A stretch of 32,000 nucleotides of DNA, taken from contig OZ245768.1 of NCBI GenBank assembly GCA_965227835.1, positions 90,001-122,000 of the forward strand. Direction: 5' to 3'. The position numbers were made by a program, and so were the translations under genes. This document shows, piece after piece, positions 2,151 through 32,000 of the stretch. The notes below the pieces were generated by a model. The model saw nothing but the letters and a program-made list of their open reading frames with translations, was not told the origin of the DNA and ran no database searches. The first letter of the stretch is position 1, and each line of letters opens with the position of its first letter. Origin of the DNA: Candidatus Saccharimonadota bacterium (GTDB taxonomy: Bacteria; Patescibacteriota; Gracilibacteria; BD1-5; UBA6164).

Positions 2151-2162
2151 ATTCTTCTAGTT

Positions 2163-3947: not shown

Positions 3948-4113
3948 CAAAGAGCTAAAGCTCTCTGTTGAAAAATTTAAAATAAACATAAAAATATTTG
4001 TTCCTTCCCTCTCCTCCAAAGGAGAGGGTTAGGGTGAGATCTGTTTGGGCTAGGTTTATATATTGCCCTATACAAGGGGTCAAGACCCCTTGTCTTAAAG
4101 AGAGACTGAATAG
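3948..4113. repeat. Composite GC-rich repeat element A (short form)
   Basis: 24-nt hairpin motif (3948-3971), AT-rich linker, hairpin CCCTCTCC-TCCAAA-GGAGAGGG (4007-4028), TTAGGGTGAG, hairpin ACAAGGGGTC-AA-GACCCCTTGT (4072-4093), then GACTGAATAG. Near-identical ends to elements B and C. Confidence 0.85.
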
Positions 4114-4204
4114 TTCTTTAGTTTTTGTGTTTTTATACAATTCCATTTTAGTAAATAGTGGTACCTATCTACTGGTACAGTTAATACATCACACAAAAAA
4201 ACTT

Positions 4205-4297: not shown

Positions 4298-4789
4298 TTA
4301 AGAATATTCAAGATGATTTTTTGCATTTTTTAAATAGTAATATTTCTTGAAAGTAAGTTTATTATACAGGGAAGATGCAAATTTTTTATTAGGAAAAAGT
4401 ATTTTTTCAAACCTATCTTTCTCAATAAGGTAATCAACCAATATTTTGAAATCTCAATCTCAAGTAACTAAAATAATTTTTTCAAACCTATCTCATCTAT
4501 CTATTAAATTTTTCATAATATAAAAAATCATATCAGTATCTATATTTCATTTTTTTAATGAATCCATTTCAGAGACTTGTTTCTTAAAAATCAATTTAAA
4601 TCAAGCATTTTTAATATTATCATATAAATCTTTATTTTTATCATTCTTAAATCATATGAAGTAATAAGCTTTTTTTACTTTATATTTATCTTTTAAAAAT
4701 ATTCTAAATTTATATAAATCTATTTTCCAATTATCTTGTGAAGTTCAAAGGTGTAGGTTTTGTCAGTCTATGAAAGTATAGTTTTTCAT
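4298..4789 (-). CDS. NYN-domain (LabA/DUF88-like) putative RNase
   Basis: ATG (complement of 4787-4789) to TAA (4298-4300), 163 aa. The N-terminal FIDGQNLHLG and central LVTGDGDF (both Gly = TGA) are the NYN/LabA signatures. Confidence 0.75.
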
Positions 4790-4949
4790 AACTTATAAAT
4801 AGTCAATTATTATTTGATAATCTAATTCTTTTCTTTCTTTTTTCTACCAGGTTTAAGTATTTCTTTATGATAGGAAATGTTTTCTAGTTTATTATTATTA
4901 ATTTCAATTTTATTATATTTTTATTTTTTCAATTAGTTTAAACATTTTA

Positions 4950-5176
4950 CAAAGAGCTAAAGCTCTCTGTTGAAAAATTTAAAATAAACATAAAAATATT
5001 TGTTCCTTCCCTCTCCTCCAAAGGAGAGGGTTAGGTTGAGGTCTTGCTTGGAAGGGGTTAGGGTGAGTTTGAGCTGGAGATAGTTACGTCTTTTTAGGTT
5101 TAGAGGAGGTCTTTCTCAGAGAGAGTTAATCTTAGACAAGGGGTCAAGACCCCTTGTCTTAAAGAGGACTGAATAG
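4950..5176. repeat. Composite GC-rich repeat element B (long form)
   Basis: Same architecture as element A with about 100 bp of extra internal sequence that it shares with element C (GTTAGGGTGAGTTTGAGCTGGAGA.AGTTACGTCTT...GAGGAGGTCTTTCTCAGAGAGAGTTAATCTTAGACAA). Confidence 0.85.
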
Positions 5177-5201
5177 TTCTTTATGAGTTTTTCGAATTAC
5201 T

Positions 5202-5594
5202 CTAATCAATATTGGCATTTTTTCTTTTTTCTTCTCTTCTTTTTCTTCTTTGTTCGTTTGCTATAACACTAAATTCAAAAAAATATCTTTCAAAAAATTT
5301 TTTATCTGACTTGTATTCGTTGTATCAAAAAAAATAGTCTGATATAAGTTCACGGATCATACATATCTCTTTTAACTTCGGTGTATTTTTCCATTTTTTG
5401 TCTGCCATTGCCATATCTAACAGTTCATATGCTCTGTTTATAGAGCCTGTAAATTCTTTTTCTTTTCAATTTTCAATATTATTTAAGCTTCTTCATACTT
5501 CTGCTCATATATTGGCTAGTTGTTCATATATAGATAATTCAAACCATCTTCATGATTCAAGAATGTCTCTATGGAATATTATGTGTTTTAGCAT
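5202..5594 (-). CDS. Hypothetical all-helical protein (130 aa); weak resemblance to MazG-like EXXE/NTP-pyrophosphohydrolase helices
   Basis: ATG (5592-5594) to TAG (5202-5204) with TGA=Gly. The start overlaps the upstream gene stop (ATGCTAA). Sequence LSIYEQLANIGAEVGRSL..AYELLDMAMADKKWKN..LKEICMIRELISDYF. Confidence 0.6.
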
Positions 5595-5941
5595 ATAATT
5601 TTTTTGTTTATTAAGTTTTCAATGGTATTTCTTATGTTTTCATCTTCTATATATCTGCTTTTGTTATTTTGATTTGGTCTTATATTTATCATAGAATCGT
5701 ATTCTATGAAATTAGGTGTGTTATAATTATCTGAATATAGATTAATTCACCATAAGTTTTCTTGTTCATATCATTCATCAATCATCATATCTTCTTCATC
5801 TACATGTAAAACTCATCATATAACGAAATCTCAAGACTTTATGTCTATTACTACTTTTGCTAATTTGTTTCCCTCAGGAGAAGAGCAATTTTCATATTCT
5901 TTTATTTCTTCAATTGTTATATTACTTATTATTTTTTTCAT
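5588..5941 (-). CDS. Hypothetical protein (117 aa), first gene of an overlapping pair
   Basis: ATG (5939-5941) to TAA (5588-5590), open with TGA=Gly. I recognise no motif family with confidence. Confidence 0.55.
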
Positions 5942-6047
5942 TTTTTTTATAATATTTTTTTAATTTTTTACTTTCAATTTTATTATATATTTATTTTTAT
6001 TTCTGCAATGGATTTTTTTATAATTATACTTTAATCTTTACTTTAAA

Positions 6048-6262
6048 AACGCTAAAGCTCTTTTTTGCCAAAAACATAAAAATATTTGTTCCTTCCCTCT
6101 CCTCCAAAGGAGAGGGTTAGGGTGAGGTCTGTTCGGATATTGTTAGGGTGAGTTTGAGCTGGAGAGAGTTACGTCTTGCTAGGCTTAGAGGAGGTCTTTC
6201 TCAGAGAGAGTTAATCTTAGACAATGTGTCAAGACCCCTTGTCTTAAAGAGAGACTGAATAG
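6048..6262. repeat. Composite GC-rich repeat element C (long form, degenerate 5' hairpin motif)
   Basis: Shares CATAAAAATATTTGTTCCTTCCCTCTCCTCCAAAGGAGAGGGTTAGGGTGAGGTCTGTTC and the distal hairpin/GACTGAATAG end with A and B. The distal hairpin carries two substitutions (ACAATGTGTC). Confidence 0.85.
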
Positions 6263-6423
6263 TTTTTTAACACTTAAAAAATAATAATTTTTGTAATGCT
6301 TTTGCAACTAAATTTAAACCAATAAAAATAAAAATAAATCTTTTTTGTTCCAAAATTTGCGAGCAGTGAAAAAGTATGTTATCATTTATCTTATAAAGTT
6401 TATAAATAATTTATTTAAGATAG

Positions 6424-16695: not shown

Positions 16696-16955
16696 TTACT
16701 CAAAATTTTTGTATATTTCATGCACTTCTGAAAATGGATTTTTATCTTTTATATGAATTTTATCCCAATGTATTTTTTCCAAACTTGATATATTCTTATT
16801 TAAATTAGAGATTCCACCTTGTATAATTTTTCTATGAATCTCTATTTTTTCGCTAGAGTATCATTTGTCATAGCCTTTATGGTATTTTTTGATTTCATTT
16901 ATATAAGAATTATTTGTTGAATCAAAATATTTTAAATGTAATAATACAAACAATT
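16696..16955 (-). pseudogene. RloB-like (AbiLii-like) gene, C-terminal segment separated by the IS insertion
   Basis: Reads ..LFVLLHLKYFDSTNNSYINEIKKYHKGYDKGYSSEKIEIHRKIIQGG... to TAA (16696-16698). It joins in frame to 18162-18241 if the IS and one AATT copy are removed. Confidence 0.7.
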
Positions 16956-18161
16956 GGGACCTCTGCAAAAAGATAGATTTAAATTACAAAAATATAATAA
17001 AAAGATTAAAATATGATAAATATTTTAATTTTTTTTTAATGATTATGTCACCATTTAAAGAACAACAAACATTTTTGAATTATTTCCAAAATGAGTTATG
17101 AATTACAAGAACAGAAAAGTTTCTAACAAAATTAGATAAAGTAGTCCCATGGGAATCAATATCAAATAAAATTAATTTATCTAGAGAAATATCAGATTGA
17201 TGAGTTTGAAGACCAAGAATGGAAATACAAAAAATGTTAAAAATACTATTTCTTCAATGACTATATGGATTATCAGATCCGGAAATAGAAGATCAAATAA
17301 GAGACAGAAATAGCTTTCAAAAGTTTCTATGAATATCTGAATCTAAAGATATACCAGATGAAACAACAATATGTAGATTTAGAAATGAATTATCAGAAAA
17401 CTGAAGTCAGGAAACTATATTTACAATGACTCAATTTATTTTAGCTGAAATGTGATTTACAGTAGAAAAGTGATTTATTCAAGATGGTACTATAATAGAA
17501 TCACCAAAATGAAGAAAGAATAATAAATGAGAAAATACAAGAGATAAGGAAGCTAGTTTTACAAAGAAGAATTGAAGAAGTTATCATTGATATAAAGCTC
17601 ATATTGAAACAACAAAGAGAGGAGACTTTGTAATGAATACAACATATACGACAGCTAAGATACATGATTCACAATTATCTGATACTTTAATGACTTGAGA
17701 TGAGAATGAAGAGGCATATTGAGATAGTGCCTATATAAGTAAAGATAAAATAAGATTTTTAGATGAGTTATGAATTAAGTGAGAGTTCAATGAAAGATGA
17801 TCTAGAAATAATCCGTTGACTTCTTATCAAAAAGAACAAAATAGAATTAAATCTACTATTAGGGCAAGAGTAGAACATCCTTTTTCTATTTTAAAGGCTA
17901 AATATTGAAATTATAAAACAAGATATAGATGATTAGTTAAGAATGCTATGCACTGGTTTTTATCTTGTGCTATTTATAATTTTGAACTATTGGCAAGGAG
18001 GTATATATAGCTTTCTAATAGGTGAATTGTGCCTAAATTTGGAAATTATACCTAAAAAAAGGCATAATTCATAGAAATTATCTTATATATTCTTCAAAAA
18101 AAGTGATTTTTATTCAAAATCACTTTTTTCTTGTTCTTTTCAACAATATTGCAGAGGTCCC
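16956..18161 (+). mobile_element. IS5-family insertion sequence (1206 bp)
   Basis: Terminal inverted repeats GGGACCTCTGCAA (16956-16968) / TTGCAGAGGTCCC (18149-18161). AATT is present on both sides (16952-16955 and 18162-18165). It contains a single transposase ORF. Confidence 0.85.
17045..18010 (+). CDS. IS5-family DDE transposase (321 aa)
   Basis: ATG 17045 to TAG 18008-18010 with TGA=Gly. Shows ..LQGLYGLSDPEIEDQIRDRNSFQKFLG.., YGDSAYIS (second D) and RARVEHPFSILKAKYG (catalytic E region), typical of IS5. Confidence 0.85.
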
Positions 18162-18528
18162 AATTCAAAATCTTGATTAGAAAATAATACTTCTGCATAA
18201 TCGTCTTGATCAAATAAATTTTTTATAACATTTATTTCATCTTTTTATATGCATCAGTATCAAGTAATAAATATATTTTTGAATTGGTATTTTGAAGTTG
18301 CTTTTTAGAAAACTCAAAATTATAGCTAATTTTTTCATAGATTTTGTCTATATAATTTGAAACTTTTTTCTTGGTAGTTCATATTTGTCAAGATTTAAAC
18401 GACTCTATTTTAACATTTGTATTGGATCTTTTAATTTCTCTAAAAGCATCAAAATAACATTTTTCAGTTTCTCATTCACAAAATATAAAAAATGTCCTTT
18501 TTAGTCTTTTCCTTTTTTGTTTTCTCAT
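18162..18528 (-). pseudogene. RloB-like (AbiLii-like) gene, N-terminal segment, frameshifted and IS-interrupted
   Basis: ATG (18526-18528) gives MRKQKRKRLKRTFFIFCEGETEKCYF (RloB signature CEGEKTE-like). This frame hits TAA at 18232-18234. The homologous reading continues in another frame (DEINVIKNLFDQDDYAEVLFSNQDFE) after an A5 run at 18242-18246, which implies a 1-nt loss. Confidence 0.7.
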
Positions 18529-19754
18529 GAAATCATTTGTTTTATTAATGAACTAAAATCTCTAAGAATAGGCACTCATCATAGAGATCATAAATTATAT
18601 AACTTTTTTATATCATTTTCACTTCTTAAATCTTCAAAATCATACAGTGTATAAAATTTTGTAGAACCAGATTCGCTCTTTTCTATAATACCTATTTGTT
18701 CTTTTTTAAATTCTTTTAGATTCATTAATTCTAGATTATGAGTTGTAAATATAAATTGATATTTCTTTCATAAGTCACTGTGAATTAAGTTAAATAAATT
18801 TTTTACTATATGAGGATGTAAATTCATTTCTATTTCATCAAAACACAATACTCATTCCTCTTTTATATTTACTAATATTCTTCATAGTATTCAAAATAAC
18901 TTTTTAGTTCAATCTGATTCTTGTAAAAATGGTAAATATTCCAGTTCATCTGTTCAATTAATTTTGTGTCAAAATCTTATAATAGGCTCTGGAGGTATAA
19001 AATTAATACCTCCTTCATTAGGACCAAGATTAATTACTTGTAATTTTTGTTCTTCGATTCTAATATCATAAATGTTAATATCAGCACATTTTAGAAACTC
19101 TATAGCAAGATTTTTATATTCATCATTATCATTCAATTTTAATAAATTAACTGTTTCAATACCATCAAAATCCCTTCATAAGCTAACTAATTTACTAAAA
19201 AAATATAGTATTGGCTTGTTATTCAATTTTCAATTAAATTGATCTAGTATCCACAATACAGAAACATTTTCTCTTACTTTATCTTCCAACAAATTTGAAT
19301 GATTAGAAAATCAATTCTCAAATTTTATATTTTGATTTTTCCTTGAAAACAATGTGATTTTTTTATTTTTTCATTTTATTTCATATAAATTTTCAGATTT
19401 TACTATCTTTTTTAATAGTTCAAAATTGTAAATATACTCTTTGTTATCTATAAAAAATGATATTTCAAAAAAACTTGATCAATCTTTAGTATTTTCGTCA
19501 AATAGAAAAGGAGATATATAAAAAGTTCTTTTCATTACAAAATTTGTTATAACTACTATGGCTTTTAATATATTAGTTTTTCAACTGGCATTAGCTCAAT
19601 AAATAATCATACTCTTTTCTAGAGTTGTTTTTTTTCAATAAGATTCAATAGAAAAAACATTGTTCTTTAAATTTCAATAATTTGAAGATTCAAAGTTAAT
19701 TTCTGTCTCATCTTTAAAAGATAAAAAATTTTTTACCTTAATATATTTTAACAT
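18501..19754 (-). CDS. AAA_21/ABC-type ATPase (AbiLi/RloA-like)
   Basis: ATG (19752-19754) to TAA (18501-18503), 417 aa. Walker A IYGANASGKTNILKAI (Gly TGA), Walker B-like VLCFDEIEMNLHP, then FIFTTHN. The 3' end overlaps the rloB-like start by 28 nt. Confidence 0.75.
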
Positions 19755-19818
19755 ATTTATGTATTAATGATTATATAAATATGATAATATTGTATCATTT
19801 TTTACACAAAAAACAAAT

Positions 19819-19843
19819 ATTTATGCAATATTTTTGCATAAAT
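19819..19843. promoter_or_regulatory. 10-bp inverted repeat ATTTATGCAA-N5-TTGCATAAAT upstream of the AbiLi-like ATPase
   Basis: Read directly. It lies 65-90 nt upstream of the minus-strand start at 19754. Candidate operator only. Confidence 0.3.
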
Positions 19844-20170
19844 TATATACAATTAATATTTTTTTCTAATTTTTACTTTTATCATAACGAAGTAATTTTG
19901 CCACAGGGCCCTTTATTTTATTTCCTCATGCACTATATTTCTCAAAACTACCCATTTTTTATAAAATCGACATAGGAGAATAAGGATAACTAATGGAAGT
20001 ACAGTATTTGTTTTGTTAAAATCACCTTGAAATATGATTTTTAAATGATTTTGAAACCAAGATAAATATATATTGAAAGAATCTTACGAAGATTTTAAAA
20101 TGTTTATTAAAACTTTTTAAAAATTTATTTTATATTCTATATAGTCTTGTTACTTTTTTTCTTTTTGGTT

Positions 20171-20401
20171 TTACTTTATATCGCATCTATAGTAGTCTTT
20201 TCCAAAAGCTCTATTTACCATTGCATACTGATTTACAAGTATGTAGCTTGTTGTTCTAGGTATTTTATAACTAACACCATCTGTTTTGAGTATATTTAAA
20301 GGTCTAAATGTTGCAAAAGGTAGCATAGACTTCTCTATATCACCAGCAATAGCTACTTGTGGTGCGAAAAGAGTTAGTGAGATAGCAAAACATATATTCA
20401 A
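20171..20401 (-). CDS. Small hypothetical protein with hydrophobic N-terminus (possible signal peptide)
   Basis: ORF-track ORF (TTG start). The N-terminus ICFAISLTLFAPQVAIAG looks like a signal peptide. The frame stays open upstream with no ATG, so the start is uncertain. Confidence 0.35.
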   Translation of the reverse strand: MNICFAISLTLFAPQVAIAGDIEKSMLPFATFRPLNILKTDGVSYKIPRTTSYILVNQYAMVNRAFGKDYYRCDIK

Positions 20402-20551
20402 AAATTTTATTTTTTTGATTCTATATATGAAGGATAAAACTAAGGATAAAAAAAGTCAAAAGTTTTTTATAAAAGAACTAGATCTTTTTTCATTTGAAAA
20501 TAAAAAAGAAATATTAATAATTTGAGAAATTAAAATCCTGAAAAAATATTC

Positions 20552-21076
20552 TTATAATATATCATCAAAATTATTCCAAACATAGATTTCTTCTGCTAGA
20601 TTTTGGCTTCAAATTTTTGTAGAAGTTTCTTTTAAATATTTTCACCCCATTTTTTTATAAAAGTATTTTGAATTATTCTCTTTCAAAACACAAACATACA
20701 TATTTTTAATATTTTTTTCTAGTAGTTTTAAACAAAATTCTTTTAGTAGTTTATGACCTAGTGAATGTTTTTGATAGTTTTTTAAAATATATATTGCATA
20801 TATTTCTCAATGAAAATTTAATATATTCTCTCTTGCTATTCATCAATCTATAAAACCAACTATTTCATTTTTTTCGTTTTCACAAACAAATGTAAAGTTA
20901 GTTTTTTCTCTCTTGGATAAATTGTTTTTCCATCTAGCAGTAGAATCTTTCAGACTTAAATTCTTCAAATATTCACTATTTATAATGCCTTTATAAGTCT
21001 CTTGCCATGATGACATAACTACCTTAGCAATTCATGTAGCATCTTTTATTGTAGCTAATCTTAATTTTGCATTCAT
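20552..21076 (-). CDS. GNAT-family N-acetyltransferase
   Basis: ATG (21074-21076) to TAA (20552-20554), 174 aa with TGA=Gly. Typical GNAT layout (..IVGFIDGGIAR.., EIYAIYILKNYQKHSLGHKLLKEF..). Confidence 0.7.
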
Positions 21077-21299
21077 ATACTCTTTAAAATTATAAATCTT
21101 AAAGAATTATACGAAACTTATATTTTTTTCAATTTCAACCAGCTATTTTTACTCATTCTTTTTTTATTTTAGAGTACTTTAATATAAATATTAAGATTGA
21201 TATAAATTTTAATAACTTGGATTACCGAGTAAATTTTTGCAATTATTATTATTTTATAGTAACATATTTAAGTTATATTTTAAATTCTGGCATAATTGT

Positions 21300-21647
21300 A
21301 TGACTAAAAGATGATTACTTATTCCTGAAATGGGAAAAGAGCTTTGGTATTTAGATTCTGAATGAAGAGCTAAACCTTTCGAAGATTCACAAAGTGGTAT
21401 AGAAATAAGGAAAATAATTCAAGATATATTAAAGGGTGAGAGAGAAGATCCATGACAAAACAATAGATCAGCACAGCCATGAGATTTTCTTGTTATTGAA
21501 CCATGACTTGAAAAAGTAGATTTTAATAAAATGTCAATTCTAATTCCCGAGAGGATATGATATACAAATGAAGAAGTTCTTCTTTTACTTTGAGACAATG
21601 ATACACCTATATATTACCTTTGAGACGACTCTCCAACTATACATTAG
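21300..21647 (+). CDS. Hypothetical protein (115 aa)
   Basis: ATG 21300 to TAG 21645-21647, checked codon by codon with TGA=Gly. No motif recognised. Confidence 0.5.
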
Positions 21648-21740
21648 AATCTGAACTTCAGAGTCTTTTTGTATAATTCCTTATCAATAAATAGTTGTAA
21701 ATATCTACTGATACAGATAATTGATTGTATTACAATAAAC

Positions 21741-21768
21741 TTGACATTTCATTTAAATTTAATACAAT
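21741..21768 (+). promoter_or_regulatory. Sigma70-like promoter TTGACA-N16-TACAAT
   Basis: TTGACA at 21741-21746 and TACAAT at 21763-21768, about 40 nt upstream of the ATG at 21810. Confidence 0.45.
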
Positions 21769-21809
21769 AAACTTACTTTCTTACTTTGGGACTTTTTAAT
21801 TATTTTTAT

Positions 21810-22670
21810 ATGCCAATAAGTATAAACATTTGATGAAATTTATGAAACAAAAAAATTGATTGAGATTCTACATCACCAATAAATATATCTAGTTGAAATA
21901 TTGAAATTTGATGAGGAAATAATTCAAGTATTGAATTAAGTTCATGAAATATTGAAATTTGATGAGAAAATAATTGAGTTATTGAATTAAGCTCATGAAA
22001 TATTGAGATTTGATGAAAAAATAATTCAAATATTGGAATAAAATCATGAAATATAGATATTAATTGAAATAATGATTGAATTATTAAATTAAAATCATGA
22101 AACATTGAGATTTGATGAAAAAATAATTCAAATATTGAAATAAAATCATGAAGTATAGATATTAATTGAAATAATGATTGAATTATTAAATCAATTTCAT
22201 GAAATATAGATATTAAGTGATATAATTCATGAGATATTTCTACAAATTCATGAAATATTAATATATGAGAAATTAGAATAAGGATTAAAAGAAATTGAAG
22301 TAATATTAATATCTGATGAAATATATTTTCAACATTCAACAGTGTAAGTACAATTATATCTTGAAATAATAGCATTAGTATATCTTGAGGTAATAATAAT
22401 GTATCAATAAATAATTGAGAAGTTTGGATTAATTGAGTTAAACAAGATTGAAATAGTAATTCAAAAAATAATGAATATAAAGTAGATATTGATGGTGTTG
22501 TTATTGATTTTGAAAATAAAAAAGCAACTACAAAAAATTGAGATACTATTGATATTTTGAATGATGGAAATGAATTTATAAAAATTGTATGAGAAAGTAT
22601 TCAAGCGAATTATAAATGACAAATAATCACTATAAAAAAAGATAGTGTTAATGTTGTTTGAAGTAAATAA
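21810..22670 (+). CDS. Gly/Asn-rich beta-helix-type repeat protein (bactofilin/DUF4097-like periodicity), Gly almost entirely TGA-encoded
   Basis: ATG 21810 to TAA 22668-22670 is open only with TGA=Gly. It has 17- and 34-residue repeats SGNIEIGG.NNS.IE..SG.IDINGNNDGIIK, followed by a non-repetitive C-terminal domain. The 189-aa ORF in the track (21806-22375, minus) is its antisense shadow. Confidence 0.65.
21993..22196 (+). repeat. Two near-identical 102-bp tandem repeats inside the beta-helix gene (preceded by diverged 51-bp units from about 21891)
   Basis: Unit 1 (21993-22094) and unit 2 (22095-22196) differ at only a few positions. Confidence 0.8.
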
Positions 22671-22747
22671 ATTTATAACAAATTATGATTATATTTAATA
22701 GTATTTATTCTTTAGAATAAAAGTTTTTTCCCATAAAATAAAGCAAT

Positions 22748-22789
22748 AGCCTGTATTTGGATATTGCTTTATTTTTTACATATAAAATC
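22748..22789 (+). terminator. Terminator hairpin, copy 1 of a roughly 41-bp direct repeat
   Basis: ATAAAGCAATAGCCTGTATTTGGATATTGCTTTATTTTTTA. A near-identical copy lies at 24272-24318. Confidence 0.6.
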
Positions 22790-23134
22790 AAAAAAGACAT
22801 ACTCCAGAAATTAAAATACCAGTTTTGGCTTATAATAAAGAAAATATATGATTAACAAAATAGTTTATGGAGTAAAAAGGGGCTTTTTAAGTCTTTCTTT
22901 TTTATCAATTATGGTTATATTACTTTTTGTATATTAAAATCTATAAAGATATTATTAAAGTATAACTGAATATTGAATGACTATTAAAGAAAAAAAGATA
23001 TATTTTAGTTACCTATAATTATTGAATATAAAAGAATGAAGAACAACAAAAGTGAGTTTTGAAACAATAGCAGAGCTTTTAAAAGGTTTTAAATGTAAGC
23101 GGAATGATTTATTTAAAATAACTAAATAATAAAT

Positions 23135-24142
23135 ATGTCAGAATCAAATACTTGAGAAATACTATTTTATAAATCTGAGGAGGGAGATATAAAAATAAAT
23201 GTGATTTTTGAAGATGAAACTATATGGCTTTCACAAAAAAAGATGTGAGAGTTATTTTGAGTGGAAACAAATACAATTAATTATCATCTATCTGAAGTTT
23301 TTAATAGTTGAGAAATATCAGAAGAATCAGTTATTCGAAATTTTAGAATAACTGCCTCTGATGGAAAGAGTTATAATACAAAGCATTATAATTTAGATAC
23401 AATTATTGCTGTTTGATATAGAGTAAACTCATACAAAGCAACAAAATTCAGAGTTTGGGCAACAAATCTACTAAAAGAGTATGTTATAAAAGGTTTTGCT
23501 ATGGATGATGAAAGATTAAAAAACTGAACTCATTTCTGAAAAGACTATTTTGAAGAGTTACTTGCAAGAATCAGAGAGATTAGAGCAAGTGAAAGAAGGT
23601 TTTATCAAAAAATAACTGATATATATGCAACGAGTGATGACTATGATCCAAATTCACAAATAAGTAGAGATTTTTTTGCTGAGGTACAAAATAAGTTTTT
23701 ATATGCTGTTTCTATTAATACTGCTCCTGAAATTATACATTCAAGAGCTAACTCAGATAAACCAAATATGTGACTTACGAGTTGGAAAGCTCAAAAAACA
23801 TGATGAAAGATAGTGAAAACAGATATAACCATTTGAAAGAATTATCTTAGCGAAGAAGAAATTGATACTTTAAATTTACTAATATCTTGATATTTAGATT
23901 TTGCAGAACTTCAAGCGAAAAAATGAAATGTTATGTATATGAAAGATTAGGTAAAGAAAACAAAAGACTTTTTACAAATCAATGATATGGAATTATTAGA
24001 ATGAAAGTGAAATATATCTAAAGAAAGTGCTGATAAAAAGGCAATTTGAGAGTATGAAAAGTTTAGAGTGGAGCAAGATAGGAATTATATTGGGGATTTT
24101 GATAGATTTGTACAAGAAGTGGAGAGGAAGAAATTGAAGTAA
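23135..24142 (+). pseudogene. RhuM-family (virulence-protein-like) gene with an internal TAG
   Basis: ATG 23135 to TAA 24140-24142 in one frame. RhuM-like blocks are present (KHYNLDTIIAVGYRVNS..ATKFRVWAT, RFYQKITDIYATS). TAG at 23948-23950 sits where the family has Trp (..MYMKD*VKKTKDFL..). Confidence 0.65.
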
Positions 24143-24271
24143 TTTTATTTTTTATCTAAATATTTTAGCTGATTTTATGGATGAAGTATGAATTTGGGAA
24201 CAAAATATTCTTTCTAAGTAATTATAAAGTACTAATTAATAAAAACAAATTACATAAATTTACCTTATATA

Positions 24272-24318
24272 ATAAAGCAAAGCAATAGTCTGTATTTGGC
24301 TATTGCTTTATTTTTTAC
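24272..24318. terminator. Terminator hairpin, copy 2 of the roughly 41-bp direct repeat, abutting the tRNA 3' end
   Basis: AAAGCAATAGTCTGTATTTGGCTATTGCTTTATTTTTTAC. It ends 5 nt from the tRNA-Glu 3' CCA. Confidence 0.6.
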
Positions 24319-24323
24319 TCTTT

Positions 24324-24399
24324 TGGTACTCCCAACGAGATTCGAACTCGTGTCTCCACCGTGAGAGGGTGGCATCCTAAACCACTAGACGATGGGAGC
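24324..24399 (-). tRNA. tRNA-Glu (anticodon CUC), CCA encoded
   Basis: The reverse complement folds as a cloverleaf: GCTCCCA TC GTCT AGTGGTTTA GGAT G CCACC CTCTCAC GGTGG AGACA CGAGT TCGAATC TCGTT GGGAGT A CCA. The anticodon loop is C-U-CUC-A-C. It closely parallels the E. coli tRNA-Glu layout. Confidence 0.9.
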
Positions 24400-24447
24400 A
24401 AAAAAAGAACCTAGCACTAAAGGAAAGTCTAAGTTCTTCAATATATA

Positions 24448-24909
24448 CTATAATTTTGCATCAATATCTTGCTTAGTCATTCAATCTATATCAGTCGTTA
24501 TCCCTATAGCCCTAGCAGATCATTGTACTATTTTCATCGCTCAAGCCTTATCTTTTGCATTTAAATCAGGCATCTTTTCTTCTGCTATCTCTCTACACTG
24601 ATCAAAACTTAAATTACCAACCTTATTCTTTTGAGGTATTGCCGAACCCTTTTTGAGATTCAATTTATTTTTTATCAAAGTACTCATAGGAGGTTGCTTA
24701 ACTATGAAATCAAAACTTCTATCCTCATATACAGTAATCACAACAGGAAGTTTAACTCACATTTTATCCTTAGTTCTTTCATTGAATTGAGAAGTAAAAT
24801 CTCATATAGGTACTCAATATTGACCAAGTGCTGGACCTACTGGTGGTGCTGGATTAGCTTGACCTCAAACTATTTGTAGTTTAATATATCATTTTACTGA
24901 AGCAGCCAT
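24448..24909 (-). CDS. rplK: 50S ribosomal protein L11
   Basis: ATG (24907-24909) to TAG (24448-24450), 153 aa. Reads [50 protein letters not shown]... The track recovers only the central 66 aa because of TGA codons. Confidence 0.9.
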
Positions 24910-25087
24910 AAATTTATAAAATTAAAATTCTAATAAAATAATTATTTTGAGAGTTCCTCTAAAATACGGCACAAATACTAAAAATAAAAGAAAAAAAAGC
25001 AAATTTTTTTATTGATTTTTTTGTCTTTATATGTTAATATTTAAATATTAAACAATTCTAGCCTCATCTTTAAAAAATATAAACAAA

Positions 25088-27619
25088 ATGGATAAGAAAA
25101 TATTTGAAATACTTGTAAGTAAAACAAATCTAAAATGACCCTGAATCTTTGAACATATTTTAATCATAATTCACAATGTATTTGAAGATTTTGATTCAGA
25201 TATAAATTTAAACAACTTCTCATTTGAAATCACAAAAATTGCTTGAAGAATTAGATTCTTTTTTATAACCCCAGAAAAATATCTATCATTTTTTAAAAAT
25301 CAAATATATGCCCATTTCAACGATGTTGAGATAATAGATGTTTGAGATTACCTTGAAAAAATACCAGATTCAAAAATTATTGTATGACAACTACTTACAG
25401 AAAAATATTTTCTATATCCTATAAAAAGTTTCACTGACATACAAGAAGAATGAACCAAAGATATGGTTGATCCTTTTTCTTCTATAACCTCTGCACTTGA
25501 TAAATCATGAAAATATTCACTAAATACTTTTCAGATAAATTTCTCTCCACTGGCAAATAAAAAATGGAAGAAAAATATAGAGAAAAAAATAAAACTACTT
25601 GATTCAAAATACCCAGAACTTCTCAAAAAAATATTTATGGAAGATGATATGATTGTTTATAGGGTAATGATTATGATAGTTTTTATCTACCCAGCTAAAA
25701 TATTTTTAGCAATATTCAATTTATTCATCCCAAAAAATTCTGAAGAACAACCATCTGAAGATAAAGGAGATTCATCTGATTTTAGTTCAGAAGAAAAACA
25801 AATCCTAGAAGAATCTTGAGTAGAGAATTGAAGTAAGATTTCAAAAAATTTTATGGAGAAAATCAAAAAACTAGGTTTTACAACAAGTATAAACATTATT
25901 TCAGCATCAGAAGATCCTATATCTTCAAAATGAATAATAAAGGAAATATATTCAACTCTTTGAGTATTTTCTTGACCAAGCCAAAATAGTTTTGTTTTAA
26001 AATCTATGACAAATGATGTATCTTTAATAAGTAGTATTAAGAGAAGAGATATATGAAAAAATAAATTTATACTAAACACTTCTGAGCTTTCCTGATTAGT
26101 TCATCTACCTACAAGTTATGTAAAAACACCTTGAATTAATTGGGTTAGTTCCAGAAATTTTGAACCACCCTCCAACCTTCCTATAGTTGACCCAGATTTA
26201 ACAGATTGAATAACACCAGAAACAGATCTTACCCCTGTTTGAAAAACAAATTTTAGATGAACCAATATAAGCTTTGGTATGGGACCAAATGATAGAAGAA
26301 GACATGTTTATATAATATGAAAAACTTGAATGGGTAAATCAGTACTTTTAGAAAATATGATACTTGATGATATAAAAAGAAACAGGGGAGTGGCTGTCAT
26401 TGATCCACACTGAGATTTAGCAGAATCTGTTATATGACATATACCAAAATCAAGAACAAACTCCACAATTATATTTGATCCAAGTGATACAAATTGGCCT
26501 ATAGCATTTAATATGCTTGATTGAGTAAAACCAGAACATAGACCTCTTGTAGCATCTGGGCTTGTAGGTATTTTCAAAAAAATATTTGGTAATTCTTGGT
26601 GACCTAGGCTAGAACATATTCTTAGAAATACAATACTAGCTCTTTTAGAATATCCAAACTCAACACTTATATCAATCCCACTTATTTTGACATCAGATCT
26701 TTTCAGATCAAAGGTTGTAAATAAAGTTACAGACCCAATAGTAAAAAAATTCTGGACTCATGAATTTGCAAAAATGGCACCAAATCAAAAAGTTGAAGCA
26801 GCTTGACCTATTCTCAACAAAGTAGGGCAATTTTTGAGTAGTTCTATTTTGAGAAATGTATTATGACAAACAAAAAATACATTTAATGTTAGGTGGGCAA
26901 TGGATAACCAAAAAATAGTTATAATAAATTTAAGTAAATGAAAGATATGAGAAGATGCATCAGCACTTCTTTGAGCTATGATGATTACAAAATTTCAAAT
27001 GGATGCTATGGCTAGAGCTGATATAGCAGAAGCAGAAAGAAAAGACTTTTATCTTTATGTAGATGAGTTTCAAAATTTTGCTACAGACTCTTTTGCTACT
27101 ATTTTATCAGAAGCTAGAAAATATAAGCTTAATCTTGTTATGGCTAATCAATATATAGATCAAATGCAAGAATCTGTTAGATGAGCAGTATTTGGTAATG
27201 TGTGAAGTTTATTCTCTTTTCAAGTAGGTTATCATGATGCAGCTATTTTGAAAGAGGTTTTGTGATCAGAAATTTGAGAGGATGATCTCACAAATTTATC
27301 TAAGTACAATATATATCTTAAACAACTTATAGATTGAATGCCATCACCAGTATTTTCAGCAAAGACTTTTCCACCTTATTTGAAAGATCCAGAAGCATTT
27401 GATTCTAGGTATTCAAAAATATTAAATGTAAGTCGTGAGAAATATTCTAGATCCAGAGATATGGTTGTATGAAAAATTAATAAAACAATGGATGATATAG
27501 AAAAAGCAGAACAACAATGGGAAAAGAAAAAAGCAGAGTTTGAAGAGAAGAAAAAAGCGGAGAAAGCCCAAAAACATGCTGAACTTATTGCTAAACAACA
27601 AGCAAATAAAAAAGAATAA
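25088..27619 (+). CDS. VirD4/TraG/TraD-like P-loop NTPase (type IV coupling-protein-like) with a long N-terminal domain and one hydrophobic segment
   Basis: ATG 25088 to TAA 27617-27619 (843 aa). Walker A HVYIIGKTGMGKSVLL (26318-26341 region, Gly TGA), VIDPHGDL, Walker B FYLYVDEFQNFAT, ARKYKLNLVMANQY, and a Lys/Glu-rich C-terminal tail. Confidence 0.75.
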
Positions 27620-27687
27620 GAATTTTTCAATTTATTATAGAGGGTATTATTTTAAAACAGAGAGCTGAAAATGTATGGTTGTTTATT

Positions 27688-27711
27688 CAAATAGCTAAAG
27701 CCATCTGTTGA
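27688..27711 (+). repeat. 24-nt hairpin motif copy g: CAA-ATAGC-TAAA-GCCAT-CTGTTGA
   Basis: Same family, with one A/C mismatch in the stem. It lies between the ATPase stop and the recG start. Confidence 0.55.
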
Positions 27712-27829
27712 CATAGCTTTTATTCTTAAAAAATCAAAATTTTTCAAAATATTTATTTCTAGCAAAATAAATATTTTTTTTTATTATAGTATTTATCTAA
27801 ATATTCTTTTTTAAGTATAAGAAATATTT

Positions 27830-30547
27830 ATGCTAAATACAAAACTCACCAAATCAATTTTAAGAACTACTGATAAATATATAGAAGCTTTATCCAAAGT
27901 TTCTGTAAATACTATATGAGATTTTATAAATCATTTTCCAAGAGATTATGATGACAGAACCGAAGTTATTGATAGTTTTTCCTTAATAAACATAAAAGAG
28001 AAAAATACTGTTTTAGTTTCTCTAGTTTCTATAAATGATAGCAGAACATCAAATAATATGATTTTGACAAAGGCTATAATTGAAGATAAAAATTGATTTT
28101 TATCTGAAGCAGTATGGTTTAACAGAAAATACCTTAGCAATCAGCTAAAATTATATATTTGAAAAAAGATTATTTTAACTTCCAAGGTAAAATATAGTTT
28201 TTGAAAAATAAGTTTTCAAAGTCCAGAAGTTGAAACTGATTTGAGTAAAATTTGATGAGAAATAGTTCCTATATATCCAGATTTAAACTATATTCCAAGT
28301 AAATGGATAGAATGAAAAATGTCTTTACTTAAAACTTATTTTTCTGAAATATCAGAAATCCTACCAGAAAAAATAATAAAGAAATACAATTTTATAAGTA
28401 GAAAAGAAGCTTTTTATCTTATTCATTTTCCCAAAAATAAAAACGATATTGAGGTTTGAAGGTTTAGGCTTTGATATGAAGAATTATTTAATATAAACTA
28501 TAAAACTATTTCCAAAAAATATGAATCTTTTTCTAATTCAAAATGAAAATCGGTTGTTATAAAGCTTAATCCAAACCTTATAAAATACATAATTTCTAAA
28601 CTAAAGTTTGAACTCACTGATAATCAAAAAATTGTTCTTTTTCAAATACTTAAAGATATGGAAAAAGAACACTCTATGTCTAGGCTTTTAGAATGAGATG
28701 TTTGAACTTGAAAAACTATAGTTGCTTTGATTGTAAGTATTCATGCTATTTTGGAAACTTTACCTGAATACAACAGATACAACCAAGACAAGGGGTCTTG
28801 ACCCCTTGGTAAATCTTGTTTGACTGAATCTAATCCTCAACCTCCTAAAACTCACCCCCAGCCCTCCTCTGACATCCCTCACCCCCAGCCCCTCTCCTTT
28901 GGAGGAGAGGGGAGTAGAACATTTTCAACTTCCATAGCTTCTTTTTTGGAAGATAGAAATTTAGAACATACTTCACTTTCATCTTTACAGAACTTATTTA
29001 CAGATAAAAATAATATTTGAAAAACTTATTTGAAGTCACCTGCTTATGTTTTTGATTTAGCGAAAAAATTTAGAAAATATCCAACAGAGCCTGAAAAAAA
29101 ACTTTGGCTTTATCTTAGAAATAATAAATTTGATGATTTAAAATTTAGAAGACAACATCCTGTTTGAAGATATATTGCAGACTTTTGTTGTGAGGAATTA
29201 AAATTGATTGTTGAAATTGATTGAAAAATACATGATTCTAAATTTCAAAAAGAATATGAGGAAGAGAGAGATAATTTATTAAAAAACTATTGATTTAATA
29301 TAGTTAGATTAAAAAATGAAGACATTTTATATAATGATAAAGAATCTATATATCTCAAAATAAAAAAATCTGTTTTATCCCAATTTTCTTTCCCCTCTCC
29401 TTCAAAGGAGAGGGTTAGGGTGAGGTCTGTTCAGAAAGATTGAATTTTAGATTTTGGAGAGGGGAGTAGAACATTTTCAAATCCTATCCAAACTGTTTTT
29501 ATAGCTCCTACTGAAATACTCGCTTATCAACACTTTCAAAGTAGTCAAGAACTTTTAAATACTTTTTGAATCACTTCTTATTTACTCACTGGTTCTACTA
29601 CACAAAAACAAAAAATGGAGATAAAAGACTGAATGAAAAACGGAGATGTAGATATTATTTTTGGTACACATGCTTTGTTGCAAGATGACATACTTTTTAA
29701 AAATTTATGATTTGTAATTATAGATGAACAACATAGATTTTGAGTAAAACAAAGAGAAATACTGGAAGCTGGATTTTGAAATATAAGTGGTATGATACCT
29801 CACAGCTTAAATATGACAGCTACTCCAATACCAAGAACTCTTGCTTTAACTTTATACTGAGATCAAGATTTAAGCATAATTAATAAATATCCAAAATGAA
29901 GAAAAGAGATTTTTACTAAAGTTGTGAAAAATGAAAAAGAGAGAAAACAAGTAGAACTTTTTATTAAAAATGAACTTGATAAAGGTAGGCAAATTTTTTG
30001 GATATCACCTTTGGTTGAAGAATCAGAAAAGATAGATTTAGCTAATGCAATAAATACACATAGTTATTTAGAAAATATCTTTTTCCCTTACAAGGTCTGA
30101 CTTCTACATGGTAAAATGAAACCCAAGGAAAAAGAGGAAATTATGCTTAGTTTCAAGAAAAATTATATTAATGTTTTATCTTCCACATCTGTTGTAGAAG
30201 TCTGAGTTGATATAGCTAATGCTTCTGTTATTTGTATAGAGTGAGCTGAAAGGTTTGGTCTTAGTCAGCTTCATCAATTTAGATGAAGAGTAGGTAGAGG
30301 AGATTATAAATCTTATTGTTATTTATTTCCTAGTTCTTGAAATTATACAGATAGGCTGAAAGCTATGGAAAAAACTAATAATGGTTTTGAATTATCAGAA
30401 ATAGATTTAGAAATAAGATGACCTTGAGAAGTTTATTGAGTGAGACAATCATGACTGCCAGATTTAAAAATTGCAAAACTTACAGATTTGGAGTTAATTT
30501 CAGAGATTAGGGAAGATATAGAAGATTTGATGTTAAACGGAGAGTAA
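27830..30547 (+). CDS. recG: ATP-dependent DNA helicase RecG carrying an in-frame insertion of about 240 codons between helicase motifs I and Ia
   Basis: ATG 27830 to TAA 30545-30547. I verified frame 2 codon by codon from 28742 to 29521. Motif I LLEGDVGTGKT (28688-28717), motif Ia VFIAPTEILAYQH (29495-29533), DEQHRFG, TATPIPRTL, QLHQFRGRVGRG. Confidence 0.85.
28763..29485 (+). mobile_element. GC-rich hairpin repeat element with embedded DUF559 (Vsr-like PD-(D/E)xK endonuclease) module, inserted in frame in recG
   Basis: Hairpins CAAGGGGTC-TT-GACCCCTTG (28789-28808), CCCCTCTCC-TTTGGA-GGAGAGGGG (28889-28912) and CCCTCTCC-TTCAAA-GGAGAGGG (29393-29414). A 25-bp direct repeat GGAGAGGGGAGTAGAACATTTTCAA lies at 28904-28928 and 29456-29480. 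The DUF559-type sequence AKKFRKYPTEPEKKLWLYLRNNKFDDLKFRRQHPVGRYIADFCCEELKLIVEIDGKIHD...RDNLLKNYGFNIVRL spans about 29060-29311. Confidence 0.75.
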
Positions 30548-30659
30548 AATATTTAAGTTAATTTTTATATATAGATAATTAATGAACTCAAAAAATATAG
30601 ACTTTTTTACCTAGCTCAATATATTATCAAATATAAAATTACAGTATAATAATGAATAT

Positions 30660-31379
30660 ATGATAAAAAAAATCGTTGAAAATCCTTTTTTTGAGAAATT
30701 TATTATAACTATAATCTTAATAAATTGAATAACTATTTGACTTGAAACATCAAAAACAATTATGCAAAATTATTGAGTTTTTTTGCATTTATTTGATAAT
30801 ATAGTAATAGCTATATTTACTCTAGAAGCCATTTTAAAAATATATACATATAGATTTAATTATTTCAAAAGTTGATGGAACTTGTTTGATTTTTCAATTG
30901 TTGTTATTTCACTGATACCTACTAGCTGACCTTTCCAAATACTTAGAATATTTAGAGTATTTAGGATTTTAAGACTTATAACAGTTATTCCTTCTATAAG
31001 AAAAATAGTCTCTGCTCTTTTGAGTGTAATCCCATGAATATTATCCGTTTTGGTTTTGATATTAATAATATTTTATGTTTTTGCTATAATGGCTACTCAA
31101 TTGTATTGAGAGAATTTTCCAGAATGGTTTGGTAGTATTTGAAGTTCATTTTTTACTTTGTTTCAAATAATGACCTTAGAATCTTGGTCAATGTGAATAG
31201 TCCGTCCTATTCTAGAAATTCATCCCTATGCTTGGGTATTTTTTGTTATTTTTATATTAATATCAACTTTTGTGATGATAAATTTAGTTATAGCTATAGT
31301 TGTGGAAGCAATGAATAAAATTAGTGATACTCAAGAAGAACATTACAAAAAAGCAAAAATGCCTCAAAATCTGATTTAA
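30660..31379 (+). CDS. Bacterial voltage-gated sodium channel (NaChBac/BacNav family), possibly missing its C-terminal coiled coil through a frameshift
   Basis: ATG 30660 to TAA 31377-31379 (239 aa). S4 [22 protein letters not shown] and pore/selectivity filter [13 protein letters not shown] (TLESWS hallmark). The ATG at 30652 is followed by TAA after four codons and was rejected. Confidence 0.8.
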
Positions 31380-31448
31380 AAAAATTAGAAAAAAATGTAA
31401 AAGAATTAAGGGATTTATTAAATAAAATAGATAATAACTAACTTATTT

Positions 31449-32000
31449 ATGAGTTTACTTCAATTTTTCTTTATAATATCAGGTATTATTATATTAATAC
31501 TTTCTTTTGATATTTCAAAAAAACAAAAATTCAATGCACTACATTTTATTATTTTTCTGTGAGTAGGTTCTGGGCTTTTGATATTTAGTTTTTTCCCAAA
31601 TGTGTTATCTAAAGTTTGAAGTATTTTTTGAGTAGCTAGATGAGCAGATGTTTTGGTTTATACTTCTATTGTTTTTCTTCTTTATTTTGTTCTTCTTCTT
31701 TTAGCTAAACATGTAGATAATAAAAATTCTATAACACAGCTTGTAAGAGAAATAGCTATAGATTCAAGTTTAAAAAAGAAAATAAACTGAAAATTAGTCT
31801 TTATTATAAGAACATACAATGAAGCAGAAACCTTATGAAAAGTAATAAAAGATATAATATCTAGTTGATATAAAAATATATTGGTTGTTGATGATTGAAG
31901 TTTTGATAGCACTAGTAAAATTTTAGAGAAAAATTCAAAAAATATTGTTGTTGTTAGACATTTAAAAAATAGATGAGCTTGAGCTGCTTTGGAAACTGGA
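31449..32000 (+). CDS. Family 2 glycosyltransferase with an N-terminal DUF2304-like membrane segment (3' end outside window)
   Basis: ATG 31449, frame 0 open to the window end. The membrane part contains ..GVARGADVLVY... It is followed by VFIIRTYNEAETLGKVI..ILVVDDGSFDST..HLKNRGAGAALETG, typical of GT2. Confidence 0.7.

Follow-up and report, generated by a model that had tools for sequence, protein, structure and literature searches.

A DUF559 nuclease cassette with hairpin ends carried in frame by recG of a code-25 gracilibacterium: a candidate selfish, homing-like element

In the usual view, a selfish nuclease gene can persist in an essential gene only if it is coupled to RNA or protein splicing. 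Among short palindromic elements, the closest described systems are the Rickettsia palindromic elements (RPEs), reportedly described by Ogata et al. in 2000, and the repetitive extragenic palindromes with their associated tyrosine transposases (REP/RAYT systems), said to have been described by Nunvar et al. in 2010. Here, we analysed a 32,000-nucleotide (nt) stretch of a gracilibacterial genome (contig OZ245768.1; hereafter the window), in which the gene of the essential DNA-repair helicase RecG carries a long in-frame insert with a DUF559 nuclease domain. DUF559, Vsr and the homing endonuclease I-Bth0305I have been placed in one PD-(D/E)XK clade (PMC3424549), and Vsr-like homing endonucleases have been described (PMC2677866). 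In the literature that we searched (full text, with most subscription papers outside), there was no account of DUF559 cassettes that occupy host genes in frame, nor of the hairpins at their ends, and the function of the DUF559 family was undescribed. We read the recG insert as one copy of a family of selfish, homing-like DUF559 cassettes that is tolerated as a read-through insertion, and put the probability of this reading at about 0.65.

The window (25.6% GC) was translated with table 25, in which TGA encodes glycine. According to this translation and to Pfam, the recG open reading frame (ORF) including the insert occupies positions 27830–30547 of the plus strand, encodes 905 amino acids (aa) in genetic code 25 and contains 35 in-frame TGA codons. 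Pfam matched RecG_wedge (aa 18–153), DEAD (aa 551–671), Helicase_C and RecG_dom3_C; the protein thus has the wedge, superfamily 2 helicase and C-terminal domains of RecG, and it is 65–75% identical to Gracilibacteria RecG. The DEAD match spans profile positions 44–164 only, and its start at position 44 shows that motif I is split off from the rest of the domain. Translation and alignment with 119 orthologues place motif I (GDVGTGKT; 28694–28717, plus strand) as the last host motif 5' of the insert and motif Ia (VFIAPTEILAYQH; 29495–29533, plus strand) as the first host motif 3' of it, with a GxGKT–APTE spacing of 261 residues compared with 20–25 in insert-free orthologues.

The whole insert covers 28760–29485 on the plus strand (726 nt, 242 codons, no ATG and no TAA or TAG) and joins the host at ...ILE|TLPE and ...SNP|IQT. 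The original prediction, made from the letters of the window, had placed about 240 codons without TAA or TAG between motifs I and Ia, from 28763 to 29485; the codon count, the lack of stops and the end hold, while the start moves by up to one codon, to 28760. Across these 242 codons the RecG frame contains none of the two stops, compared with 4–20 in each of the other five frames. Six TGA codons lie in frame within the insert, and three of the six fall on conserved DUF559 glycines (PVGRY, EIDGK and NYGF), which indicates that the nuclease domain shares the reassigned code (TGA = Gly) of its host gene. The presence of an in-frame, DUF559-bearing insert in the recG loop between motifs I and Ia is thus confirmed.

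Since in-frame nuclease inserts in essential genes are classically inteins, we considered whether the insert is removed before the mature protein, either as an intein, as a group I or II intron or by translational bypass. No Hint or intein family was found by Pfam (E ≤ 0.01) in the insert or in the whole RecG protein, and the junctions (E|T on the left, Q|T or P|I on the right) show neither the Cys/Ser...His-Asn|Cys/Ser/Thr pattern nor an HN motif; an intein was ruled out on the missing Hint domain. An Rfam E-value scan of 28300–29900 (E ≤ 1) detected no intron RNA, its only match being a chance microRNA (E=0.3), and a gathering-threshold scan of the whole window returned one tRNA only; these negative scans ruled out a group I or II intron. 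Furthermore, all 726 nt are open in the host frame, the inserts of 23 orthologues are likewise open, and the arms that flank the nuclease are read in different frames by different hosts. A distant DUF559 copy does lie inside an intein-like segment, which interrupts an N6_N4 DNA methylase of a cyanobacterial (Microcoleaceae) metagenome-assembled genome (MAG; locus L078, ORF at about 3001–3324). This segment begins with C and ends with ...VHNC, and its Intein_splicing match reaches 29.4 bits, below the cut-off of 35.8. DUF559 in the endonuclease slot of this intein-like segment is a lead for a homing role, not proof of one. For the recG insert, we regard any such removal as highly improbable.

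The DUF559 (Vsr-like PD-(D/E)XK) domain itself spans 29054–29362 on the plus strand (aa 409–511) and is preceded, from about 29036, by a conserved N-terminal extension, KSPAYVFDLAKKFRK. A full DUF559 domain had been predicted from motifs, and a profile search bears this out: Pfam PF04480 matches with E=2.2e-31 and 108.4 bits (gathering cut-off 20.6) over profile positions 5–104 of 109. A PDB sequence search with the window domain returned 3HRL as the sole structure (E=2.4e-16); 3R3P was not among the matches, and the best Pfam family was DUF559, not Vsr. By sequence the domain falls outside the I-Bth0305I (EDxHD) family, to which it is akin at clade level only. The DUF559 motif FRRQHP-GRYIADF-(V/I)E(I/L)DG-H is intact in the window copy. 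Set against the pattern RRQ-H, Y-x-x-DF, E-x-DG-x-x-H, D-x-x-R, the window core (FRRQHPVGRYIADF...VEIDGKIH...EEER) has D replaced by E in the last motif and keeps the rest. The core motif is retained in all 29 embedded copies that were compared, and 27 of the 29 fit a strict regular expression; the two outside it differ at non-core positions, namely P0117 at a hydrophobic position and the window copy by the same D-to-E change. Over 29036–29362, the window copy carries four private substitutions (G to A in SPGY, I to V, Y to C in ADFY and D to E in YDEER) at sites that nine related cassettes keep unchanged; no other member has as many.

Among six A-type cassettes, the pairwise ratio of nonsynonymous to synonymous substitution rates (dN/dS) of the DUF559 core was 0.16–0.35, with 0.09–0.25 for RecG itself, which shows that the DUF559 domain is under purifying selection. 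In the same genome pairs the cassette dS (0.69–1.4) was below the RecG dS (1.2–2.7), in a comparison that covers 123 codons with values near saturation; a cassette dS below that of the host fits horizontal movement. The arrangement of the domain was viewed in an AlphaFold2 model of the orthologue P0060, not of the window protein (867 aa, 75-row alignment, mean predicted local distance difference test score, pLDDT, of 76.6). In this model, the RecG core and the DUF559 domain (aa 370–485) have pLDDT values of 80–90 and the arms (331–367 and 486–507) fall below 50; its best PDB match is the RecG structure 1GM5 (E=1.8e-40). The model suggests that the repeat-encoded arms are flexible linkers and that the nuclease forms an independent domain on a RecG surface loop.

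On both sides of the nuclease segment lie GC-rich hairpin units. The left one, CCTCACCCCCAG-CCCCTCTCC-TTTGGA-GGAGAGGGG-AGTAGAACA, occupies 28877–28920 (hairpin at about 28889–28913) and the right one, TCCCCTCTCC-TTCAAA-GGAGAGGG-TTAGGGTGAGGTCTGTTC, occupies 29391–29432 (hairpin at about 29391–29414), both given on the plus strand. The two regions are inverted copies, 96% complementary, of a single unit of about 45 nt, ACCTCACCCC-N-AGCCCCTCTCC-TTTGGA-GGAGAGGGG, with an inverted-repeat score of 54 against a chance level of about 20, and DNA alignment matches the left repeat to cassette termini in two other genomes as well as to solo copies. The two hairpin units bracket the nuclease segment as its terminal inverted repeats. 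Outside the left repeat lies an outer left arm (28760–28876, plus strand), a mosaic of GC-rich repeat pieces that is kept, with identical sequence, in the allele of a sister strain (L001). It contains a second hairpin type, CAAGGGGTCTTGACCCCTTG, at 28789–28808 and a degenerate copy of the CTCACCCCCAGCCC motif at 28851–28869; the second hairpin type recurs between genes at 4069–4120, 5133–5184 and 6218–6269. All three GC-rich hairpins that had been proposed for the insert are borne out by folding energies of −8.2, −11.7 and −9.1 kcal/mol (z-scores −3.2 to −4.3), the −11.7 kcal/mol fold being the left terminal inverted repeat. The right-arm segment TTAGGGTGAGGTCTGTTC (29415–29432) had been called identical to two intergenic elements, which is exact at 6117–6134; the copy at 4029–4046 has two mismatches.

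The insert also contains a 25-bp direct repeat, GGAGAGGGGAGTAGAACATTTTCAA, whose two plus-strand copies (28904–28928 and 29456–29480) are exact and 552 bp apart, just as the original prediction had it, with 0 expected from shuffles. Copy 1 takes in half of the left inverted repeat, the inner one, together with 7 nt of the cassette interior, and copy 2 is a truncated left-repeat fragment lying 30 nt past the right inverted repeat. No flanking direct repeat above chance was found in 15 other Gracilibacteria cassettes. A target-site duplication was ruled out as the origin of the 25-bp repeat, since these 15 cassettes and a clean filled/empty pair of alleles have no such repeat. The 25-bp direct repeat is a peculiarity of the window locus and not an insertion signature of the element family. 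Of the earlier picture of a nested composite element bracketed by the 25-bp repeat, the exact repeats remain; the repeat is not general, and the ends of the element are the terminal inverted repeats, which measure about 35–55 nt and vary together with the nuclease subtype.

The RecG loop was compared across the 120 best orthologues, including the window's own protein, which is on public record as P0040 (translated with code 4, 905 aa) on a 1.49-Mb contig. The loop between motifs I and Ia holds a DUF559 cassette in 24 of the 120 proteins (807–905 aa), a remnant in about 9 and nothing extra in about 87. The remnants are short GC-rich repeat-encoded peptides, and P0076 still has a DUF559 N-terminal stub; several cassette-filled RecG proteins are named 'DUF559 domain-containing protein' by NCBI. 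The expectation that the insert would be absent or polymorphic at this site is thereby borne out, as it is missing from most of the RecG proteins aligned. These comparisons also bear on a possible assembly chimera at about 28763 and 29485, given that repeats can mislead assemblers. The same 905-aa protein stands on the 1.49-Mb public contig, 23 independent assemblies show the same architecture in the same loop, the difference from the sister contig comes down to exactly one block bounded by repeats, and the reading frame is preserved. With the independent assemblies in agreement, the junctions are genuine, and the chance of a chimera is next to nil.

On the host tree, a quick neighbour-joining distance tree of the host parts of protein-cluster representatives, the filled alleles are scattered singly and mostly stand beside near-identical empty ones (P0075/P0083; P0125 and P0133 versus P0098/P0100/P0111; P0054/P0050; P0057/P0043), and distinct nuclease subtypes are found in near-identical RecG hosts. 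Two features of the homing class are thus seen here, presence/absence polymorphism at the same site and a distribution incongruent with the host tree. A single ancient insertion followed by vertical descent is disfavoured by the host tree, by the several subtypes within one host clade and by the cassette dS being lower than the host dS. At the DNA level, a filled and an empty locus (L002 and L004, 97% identical) differ by a clean 528-bp insertion, and at the same position a third locus with a different subtype (L003) has 455 bp in place of 8 bp. The insert starts right after the loop codons S-[ENG]-[KR]-(L) in all RecG cases inspected, and variable AT-rich spacers lie outside the inverted repeats at the insertion boundaries.

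Further variants were seen among these RecG genes. In one Gracilibacteria MAG (L008), the RecG frame ends 36 codons past DUF559 and the right inverted repeat was not found; the allele may be disrupted, or the sequence may contain an error. Four Gracilibacteria RecG proteins of 821–827 aa (P0113, P0129, P0137 and P0153) carry a GNAT acetyltransferase domain elsewhere and have a normal motif I–Ia loop, and one GNAT protein, P0004, has DUF559 at its C terminus.

A sister strain offers a direct view of the locus without its nuclease. The contig L001 (ENA ERZ25074195, 20.7 kb) is syntenic with window positions 17995–31997 at 95–98% identity, and blastn aligns window 25048–28928 to L001 4100–7979 and window 29456–31997 to L001 7955–10510, with a 25-nt overlap of the two L001 ranges. 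According to the junction alignment, L001 has one copy of the 25-mer and exactly 552 bp fewer; the missing block (184 codons) can be written as 28929–29480 on the plus strand, any 552-bp register between the repeat copies being equivalent. Its RecG (P0041) has 721 aa, that is, 905 minus 184, with the frame kept and a loop that reads ...PHPQPLSFGGEGSRTFSNPIQTVF. The proposal that removal of 552 bp would leave the RecG frame intact is therefore realised in a natural allele. L001 retains a left arm of 171 bp and is thus a solo-arm allele, not a virgin site.

Over about 400 nt to the left of the junction (window 28530–28928), there are no mismatches to L001, compared with 1–8 per 100 nt farther out. 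This indicates that the junction region was recently common to both strains, and the mismatch-free tract at the element looks like recent recombination or conversion. Because the 25-bp repeat is unique to the window locus, we take the sister allele to have arisen by a single deletion between the repeats, and slippage or recombination between the two copies would explain it most simply. Alternatively, the cassette may have been copied into a pre-existing solo arm, which would fit homing into its own solo ends.

The cassette family extends well beyond recG. The closest relatives of the window nuclease sit in frame in RNase H, TsaB, a GNAT protein and a DUF1156 methylase. A scan for DUF559 loci with one genome per species returned 80 loci; all 16 from Gracilibacteria form part of long ORFs, as does one from a 'Patescibacteria group' MAG (UBA6164), and none of them is free-standing. 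Pfam matches or inspection by eye identify the hosts as RecG (in seven Gracilibacteria loci and in the UBA6164 MAG), PriA, RecQ, LeuRS, TsaD, Fmt (twice) and MnmA; in most other phyla, DUF559 is a free-standing ORF of about 120–170 aa. An exhaustive HMMER search queried with the orthologue P0060 yielded 22,964 representative clusters at E ≤ 1e-3, and about 30 of the best 150 are embedded, in hosts that include Eco57I/MmeI-type and N6_N4 methylases, HsdS, a radical-SAM/TRAM enzyme, LeuRS, UvrC and riboflavin synthase. The same set also shows DUF559 in RecG at a different site. One Gracilibacteria LeuRS (L024, about 1520 aa) carries, besides its DUF559 cassette, further large insertions when compared with ordinary LeuRS, one of which is Nudix-like by eye.

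Inverted repeats of about 34–70 aligned nt were found in 15 of the 16 Gracilibacteria cassettes with both flanks. The repeat type follows the nuclease cluster and recurs over host genes (RecG, RNase H, PriA, RecQ, LeuRS, TsaD, Fmt and MnmA). For example, one type is shared by RecG and Fmt, another by RecG and LeuRS, another by RecG and MnmA, and the window's type by RecG, RNase H and PriA. Which frame of the arms is translated depends on the host, and they read as PHPQPLSFGGEGS or SPQPSPLEEREQ and as FPSPSKERVRVRS or PPLLQRRGVRGEV, which indicates that the conserved entity is the DNA. Among the 76 loci whose flanks were long enough, which come from more than 15 phyla, 61 have related hairpin units on both sides of DUF559; the sample is biased to relatives of the window's subtype, and the maximum in shuffles was about 20–30. 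The claim that such a composite element is undescribed in code-25 lineages holds for the literature searched, and has to be set beside the finding that the arrangement is common in Gracilibacteria, where NCBI labels it, and that hairpin-flanked DUF559 genes occur in many phyla.

The flanking hairpins are strikingly alike over phyla (L011–L086), with the form CCTCACCCC..CCCCTCTCC-loop-GGAGAGGGG..GGGGTGAGG, and this likeness would account for the 'PSPxxGEGxGVR' peptides that keep appearing among predicted proteins; in some genomes, each DUF559 flank is a full two-tier palindrome. A shared target motif in the hosts was considered and dropped: GAGTGAGA precedes the cassette on its 5' side in the RecG and RNase H hosts and is absent in PriA, LeuRS, Fmt and MnmA. 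In the host DNA just upstream of the cassettes, compared at L002 2515–2535, L005 at about 1930, L069, L010 and L059, the RecG and RNase H hosts read (GA)GAGTGAGA(A/T). This is similar to the outermost part of the inverted repeat, GGGGTGAGGT; the resemblance may be due to chance.

Such a distribution could reflect a domesticated fusion, in which the nuclease is useful to RecG or other hosts, for example by cutting branched DNA bound by RecG, and is kept by host-level selection. Purifying selection on the domain, the embedding of all 16 Gracilibacteria loci and the fact that the identified Gracilibacteria hosts are all nucleic-acid enzymes (RecG, RecQ, PriA, RNase H, LeuRS, TsaD, Fmt and MnmA) agree with this idea. 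However, about 70% of the RecG orthologues have no such domain, including near-identical sisters of filled ones, decay remnants are common, and the sister strain has an intact RecG without the domain. In addition, the cassette occurs in unrelated enzymes, elsewhere including riboflavin synthase, HsdS and methyltransferases, and its arms are repeat DNA read in arbitrary frames. We therefore give a domesticated fusion a slender chance.

A transposon-like unit is another candidate. Here, DUF559 would be an end-recognising nuclease (compare RAYT-REP and TnsA-Tn7), the unit would be excised or copied out and re-inserted, and solo units would be its non-autonomous derivatives. In keeping with this, almost all cassettes lie between inverted repeats whose type changes with the nuclease subtype, one and the same subtype is found in host genes that are unrelated, the window contains dispersed solo units, and the association between DUF559 and hairpins extends across phyla. 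On the other hand, the junction is clean, without a target-site duplication, and 15 cassettes have no flanking direct repeats; the variable AT-rich spacers outside the inverted repeats are unlike precise end-to-end transposition; and the use of one RecG loop by four subtypes is left unexplained. Moreover, a PD-(D/E)XK domain of about 110 aa has, to our knowledge, no known strand-transfer activity. We consider this explanation unlikely.

Copies of the repeat without a nuclease are present in the window itself. The hairpin core CCCTCTCC-N6-GGAGAGGG occurs six times, with 0 expected: twice in recG, three times in intergenic composite repeats and once in a HisRS-like ORF. This ORF (2151–3788, with HGTP_anticodon by Pfam) has a GC-rich in-frame insertion of about 95 aa at about 3010–3290, and its 541 aa compare with 405–473 aa in almost all of its 120 best orthologues. 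Within it, a plus-strand segment (3021–3260) contains two in-frame solo units in the left orientation (3070–3130 and 3197–3260) together with other GC-rich pieces; the unit at 3070–3130 is a variant with a 5-nt loop and is thus outside the six-copy count. With this ORF, the repeat family lies in frame in a second gene of essential type of the window.

The three intergenic composite repeats (3887–4120, 4889–5184 and 5975–6269) are 230–300 nt long and about 1 kb apart. Each consists of an AT-rich part, a solo hairpin unit in the right orientation (3999–4050, 5001–5050 and 6087–6138, plus strand) and a second hairpin, CAAGGGGTCAAGACCCCTTG, which is also found in the left arm of the recG insert; the tail of the unit at 6087–6138, TTAGGGTGAGGTCTGTTC, is identical to the right inverted repeat of recG. 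No Rfam family matched the composite repeats. They separate small genes, an NYN-domain gene at 4298–4792 and a DUF5674 gene at 5588–5959, both on the minus strand. The original prediction had the nuclease riding on a palindromic repeat; a dispersed GC-rich repeat there is indeed, and it is the cassette's own end, with solo copies being single ends.

The abundance of solo units raises the possibility that the nuclease is a mere passenger, with the hairpin repeats spreading otherwise, by general recombination or an unlinked enzyme, and DUF559 hitch-hiking between two of them. Solo units outnumber cassettes by at least 6:1 in the window, and plain repeat-mediated recombination can explain the 552-bp polymorphism. 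Nevertheless, a dN/dS of 0.16–0.35 and a core motif kept in independent copies are unexpected if only the reading frame mattered, the co-variation of subtype and repeat type is strict, and the association is conserved across phyla. A passenger role thus appears quite improbable.

Returning to the selfish, homing-like cassette as the preferred reading, the element is a DUF559 coding segment without its own start or stop, bounded by hairpin terminal inverted repeats that are GC-rich and about 40 nt long. It would be transcribed and translated within RecG, with the arms serving as linkers, the nuclease folding separately and RecG still working, and selection would keep only those insertions that are in frame, free of stops and in tolerant loops. 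The predicted nuclease would cut at or beside a cognate hairpin repeat or an empty target, and the break would be repaired by copying the filled copy, as in homing-like gene conversion. Such conversion could carry the cassette from genome to genome and also to sites where a solo repeat is present beforehand, and cassettes would then decay through frame-keeping internal deletions. The window locus would owe its 25-bp repeats solely to a second, truncated copy of the left repeat on the far side of the right one. Taken together, the interpretation given in the original prediction is supported with corrections.

Several points weigh against this scheme. The proposed mechanism is drawn from anatomy and distribution, the host tree is a quick one, and the dS comparison is short and near saturation. 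Selection on RecG enforces in-frame integrity, such that an open frame alone says nothing about nuclease function, and the private substitutions of the window nuclease may mark early decay with a loss of activity. The L002/L004 junction shows no target-site duplication, and no defined cleavage site is visible at the cassette junctions. Four nuclease subtypes use one RecG loop and, unlike a classical homing endonuclease with its one site, each subtype occupies several unrelated genes, with the result that neither pure site-specific homing nor random insertion fits simply. Finally, the 552-bp difference from the sister strain is compatible with deletion as well as with copy-in.

In a broader form, DUF559 would be the nuclease of pan-bacterial mobile elements with GC-rich hairpin ends (CCTCACCCC...CCCCTCTCC-loop-GGAGAGGGG...GGGGTGAGG), which carry no start or stop codon and persist in gene-dense genomes, such as those of Gracilibacteria, by being read through in surface loops of essential nucleic-acid enzymes as one more domain on linkers encoded by the repeats, and whose single ends are the repeats coding for 'PSPxxGEGxGVR' that are dispersed inside genes and between them. 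We regard this wider proposal as an even bet.

Apart from the element, L001 differs from the window by a 3.1-kb segment that it lacks (18162–21267, with 16907–18010). The segment lies directly 3' of an IS5-type DDE transposase gene and encodes an AAA_21 ATPase, a RloB-like protein and a GNAT acetyltransferase. By Pfam family names alone, the pair of AAA_21 ('putative AbiEii toxin') and RloB-like proteins suggests a role in phage defence.

If the preferred reading is true, the read-through cassette would be a third way, besides introns and inteins, for selfish nuclease genes to persist in essential genes. It would extend the life cycle of homing endonucleases and provide a natural domain-insertion experiment in helicases and tRNA enzymes. 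For DUF559, a large uncharacterised family, it would give a testable role, with a candidate substrate, the cognate hairpin repeat, adjoining each gene. It would also account for a common annotation artefact, namely GC-rich repeat peptides and 'DUF559 domain-containing' RecG, RecQ, PriA, LeuRS, TsaD, Fmt, MnmA, UvrC, riboflavin synthase and restriction-modification methylases. In reduced code-25 genomes, the elements could serve as markers of recent recombination between strains.

Compared with the described systems, the cassette shares with RPEs, by functional analogy, a palindromic repeat that lies in frame in often essential genes, is apparently translated at tolerant surface sites and also occurs between genes. 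RPEs, however, encode nothing, whereas the cassette repeats are two ends around a nuclease domain; in addition, the window repeats are GC-rich in a genome of about 26% GC and have related units in many phyla. REP/RAYT systems (REPIN; PMC3116915) similarly have an enzyme gene between inverted GC-rich hairpin repeats, short dispersed non-coding copies and co-variation of enzyme and repeat. In contrast to the insert, whose only domain is DUF559, a RAYT is an HUH Y1 (IS200/IS605-like) transposase-like enzyme; RAYTs are also free-standing and single-copy with extragenic REPs, while cassettes and solo units here lie inside coding frames as well. Miniature inverted-repeat transposable elements and insertion sequences resemble the cassette in their terminal inverted repeats and short derivatives without the enzyme, and differ from it in that Pfam detects no DDE or other transposase domain in the insert, which also has no target-site duplication and no start or stop of its own.

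Among nucleases, free-standing DUF559 proteins (PF04480; 3HRL, an 'endonuclease-like protein') have the same domain and motifs, and free-standing copies elsewhere are hairpin-flanked too, whereas the 16 Gracilibacteria loci are all embedded in host ORFs. The Vsr-like (EDxHD) enzymes I-Bth0305I and those of 'fractured genes' (PMC3239194, PMC2677866) belong to the same clade and have been shown or predicted to home into DNA-metabolism genes; unlike the cassette, genes of the I-Bth0305I type are free-standing with their own start and stop, lie in introns or between split-intein halves, and have extra DNA-binding modules. With the homing endonuclease genes of inteins and introns, the cassette shares conserved sites in essential genes, presence/absence polymorphism, patchiness and decay remnants (the 'homing cycle'). 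What sets the recG cassette apart from them is that it has neither a Hint domain nor an intron RNA, and that harm to the host is apparently avoided by its being a tolerated, translated loop.

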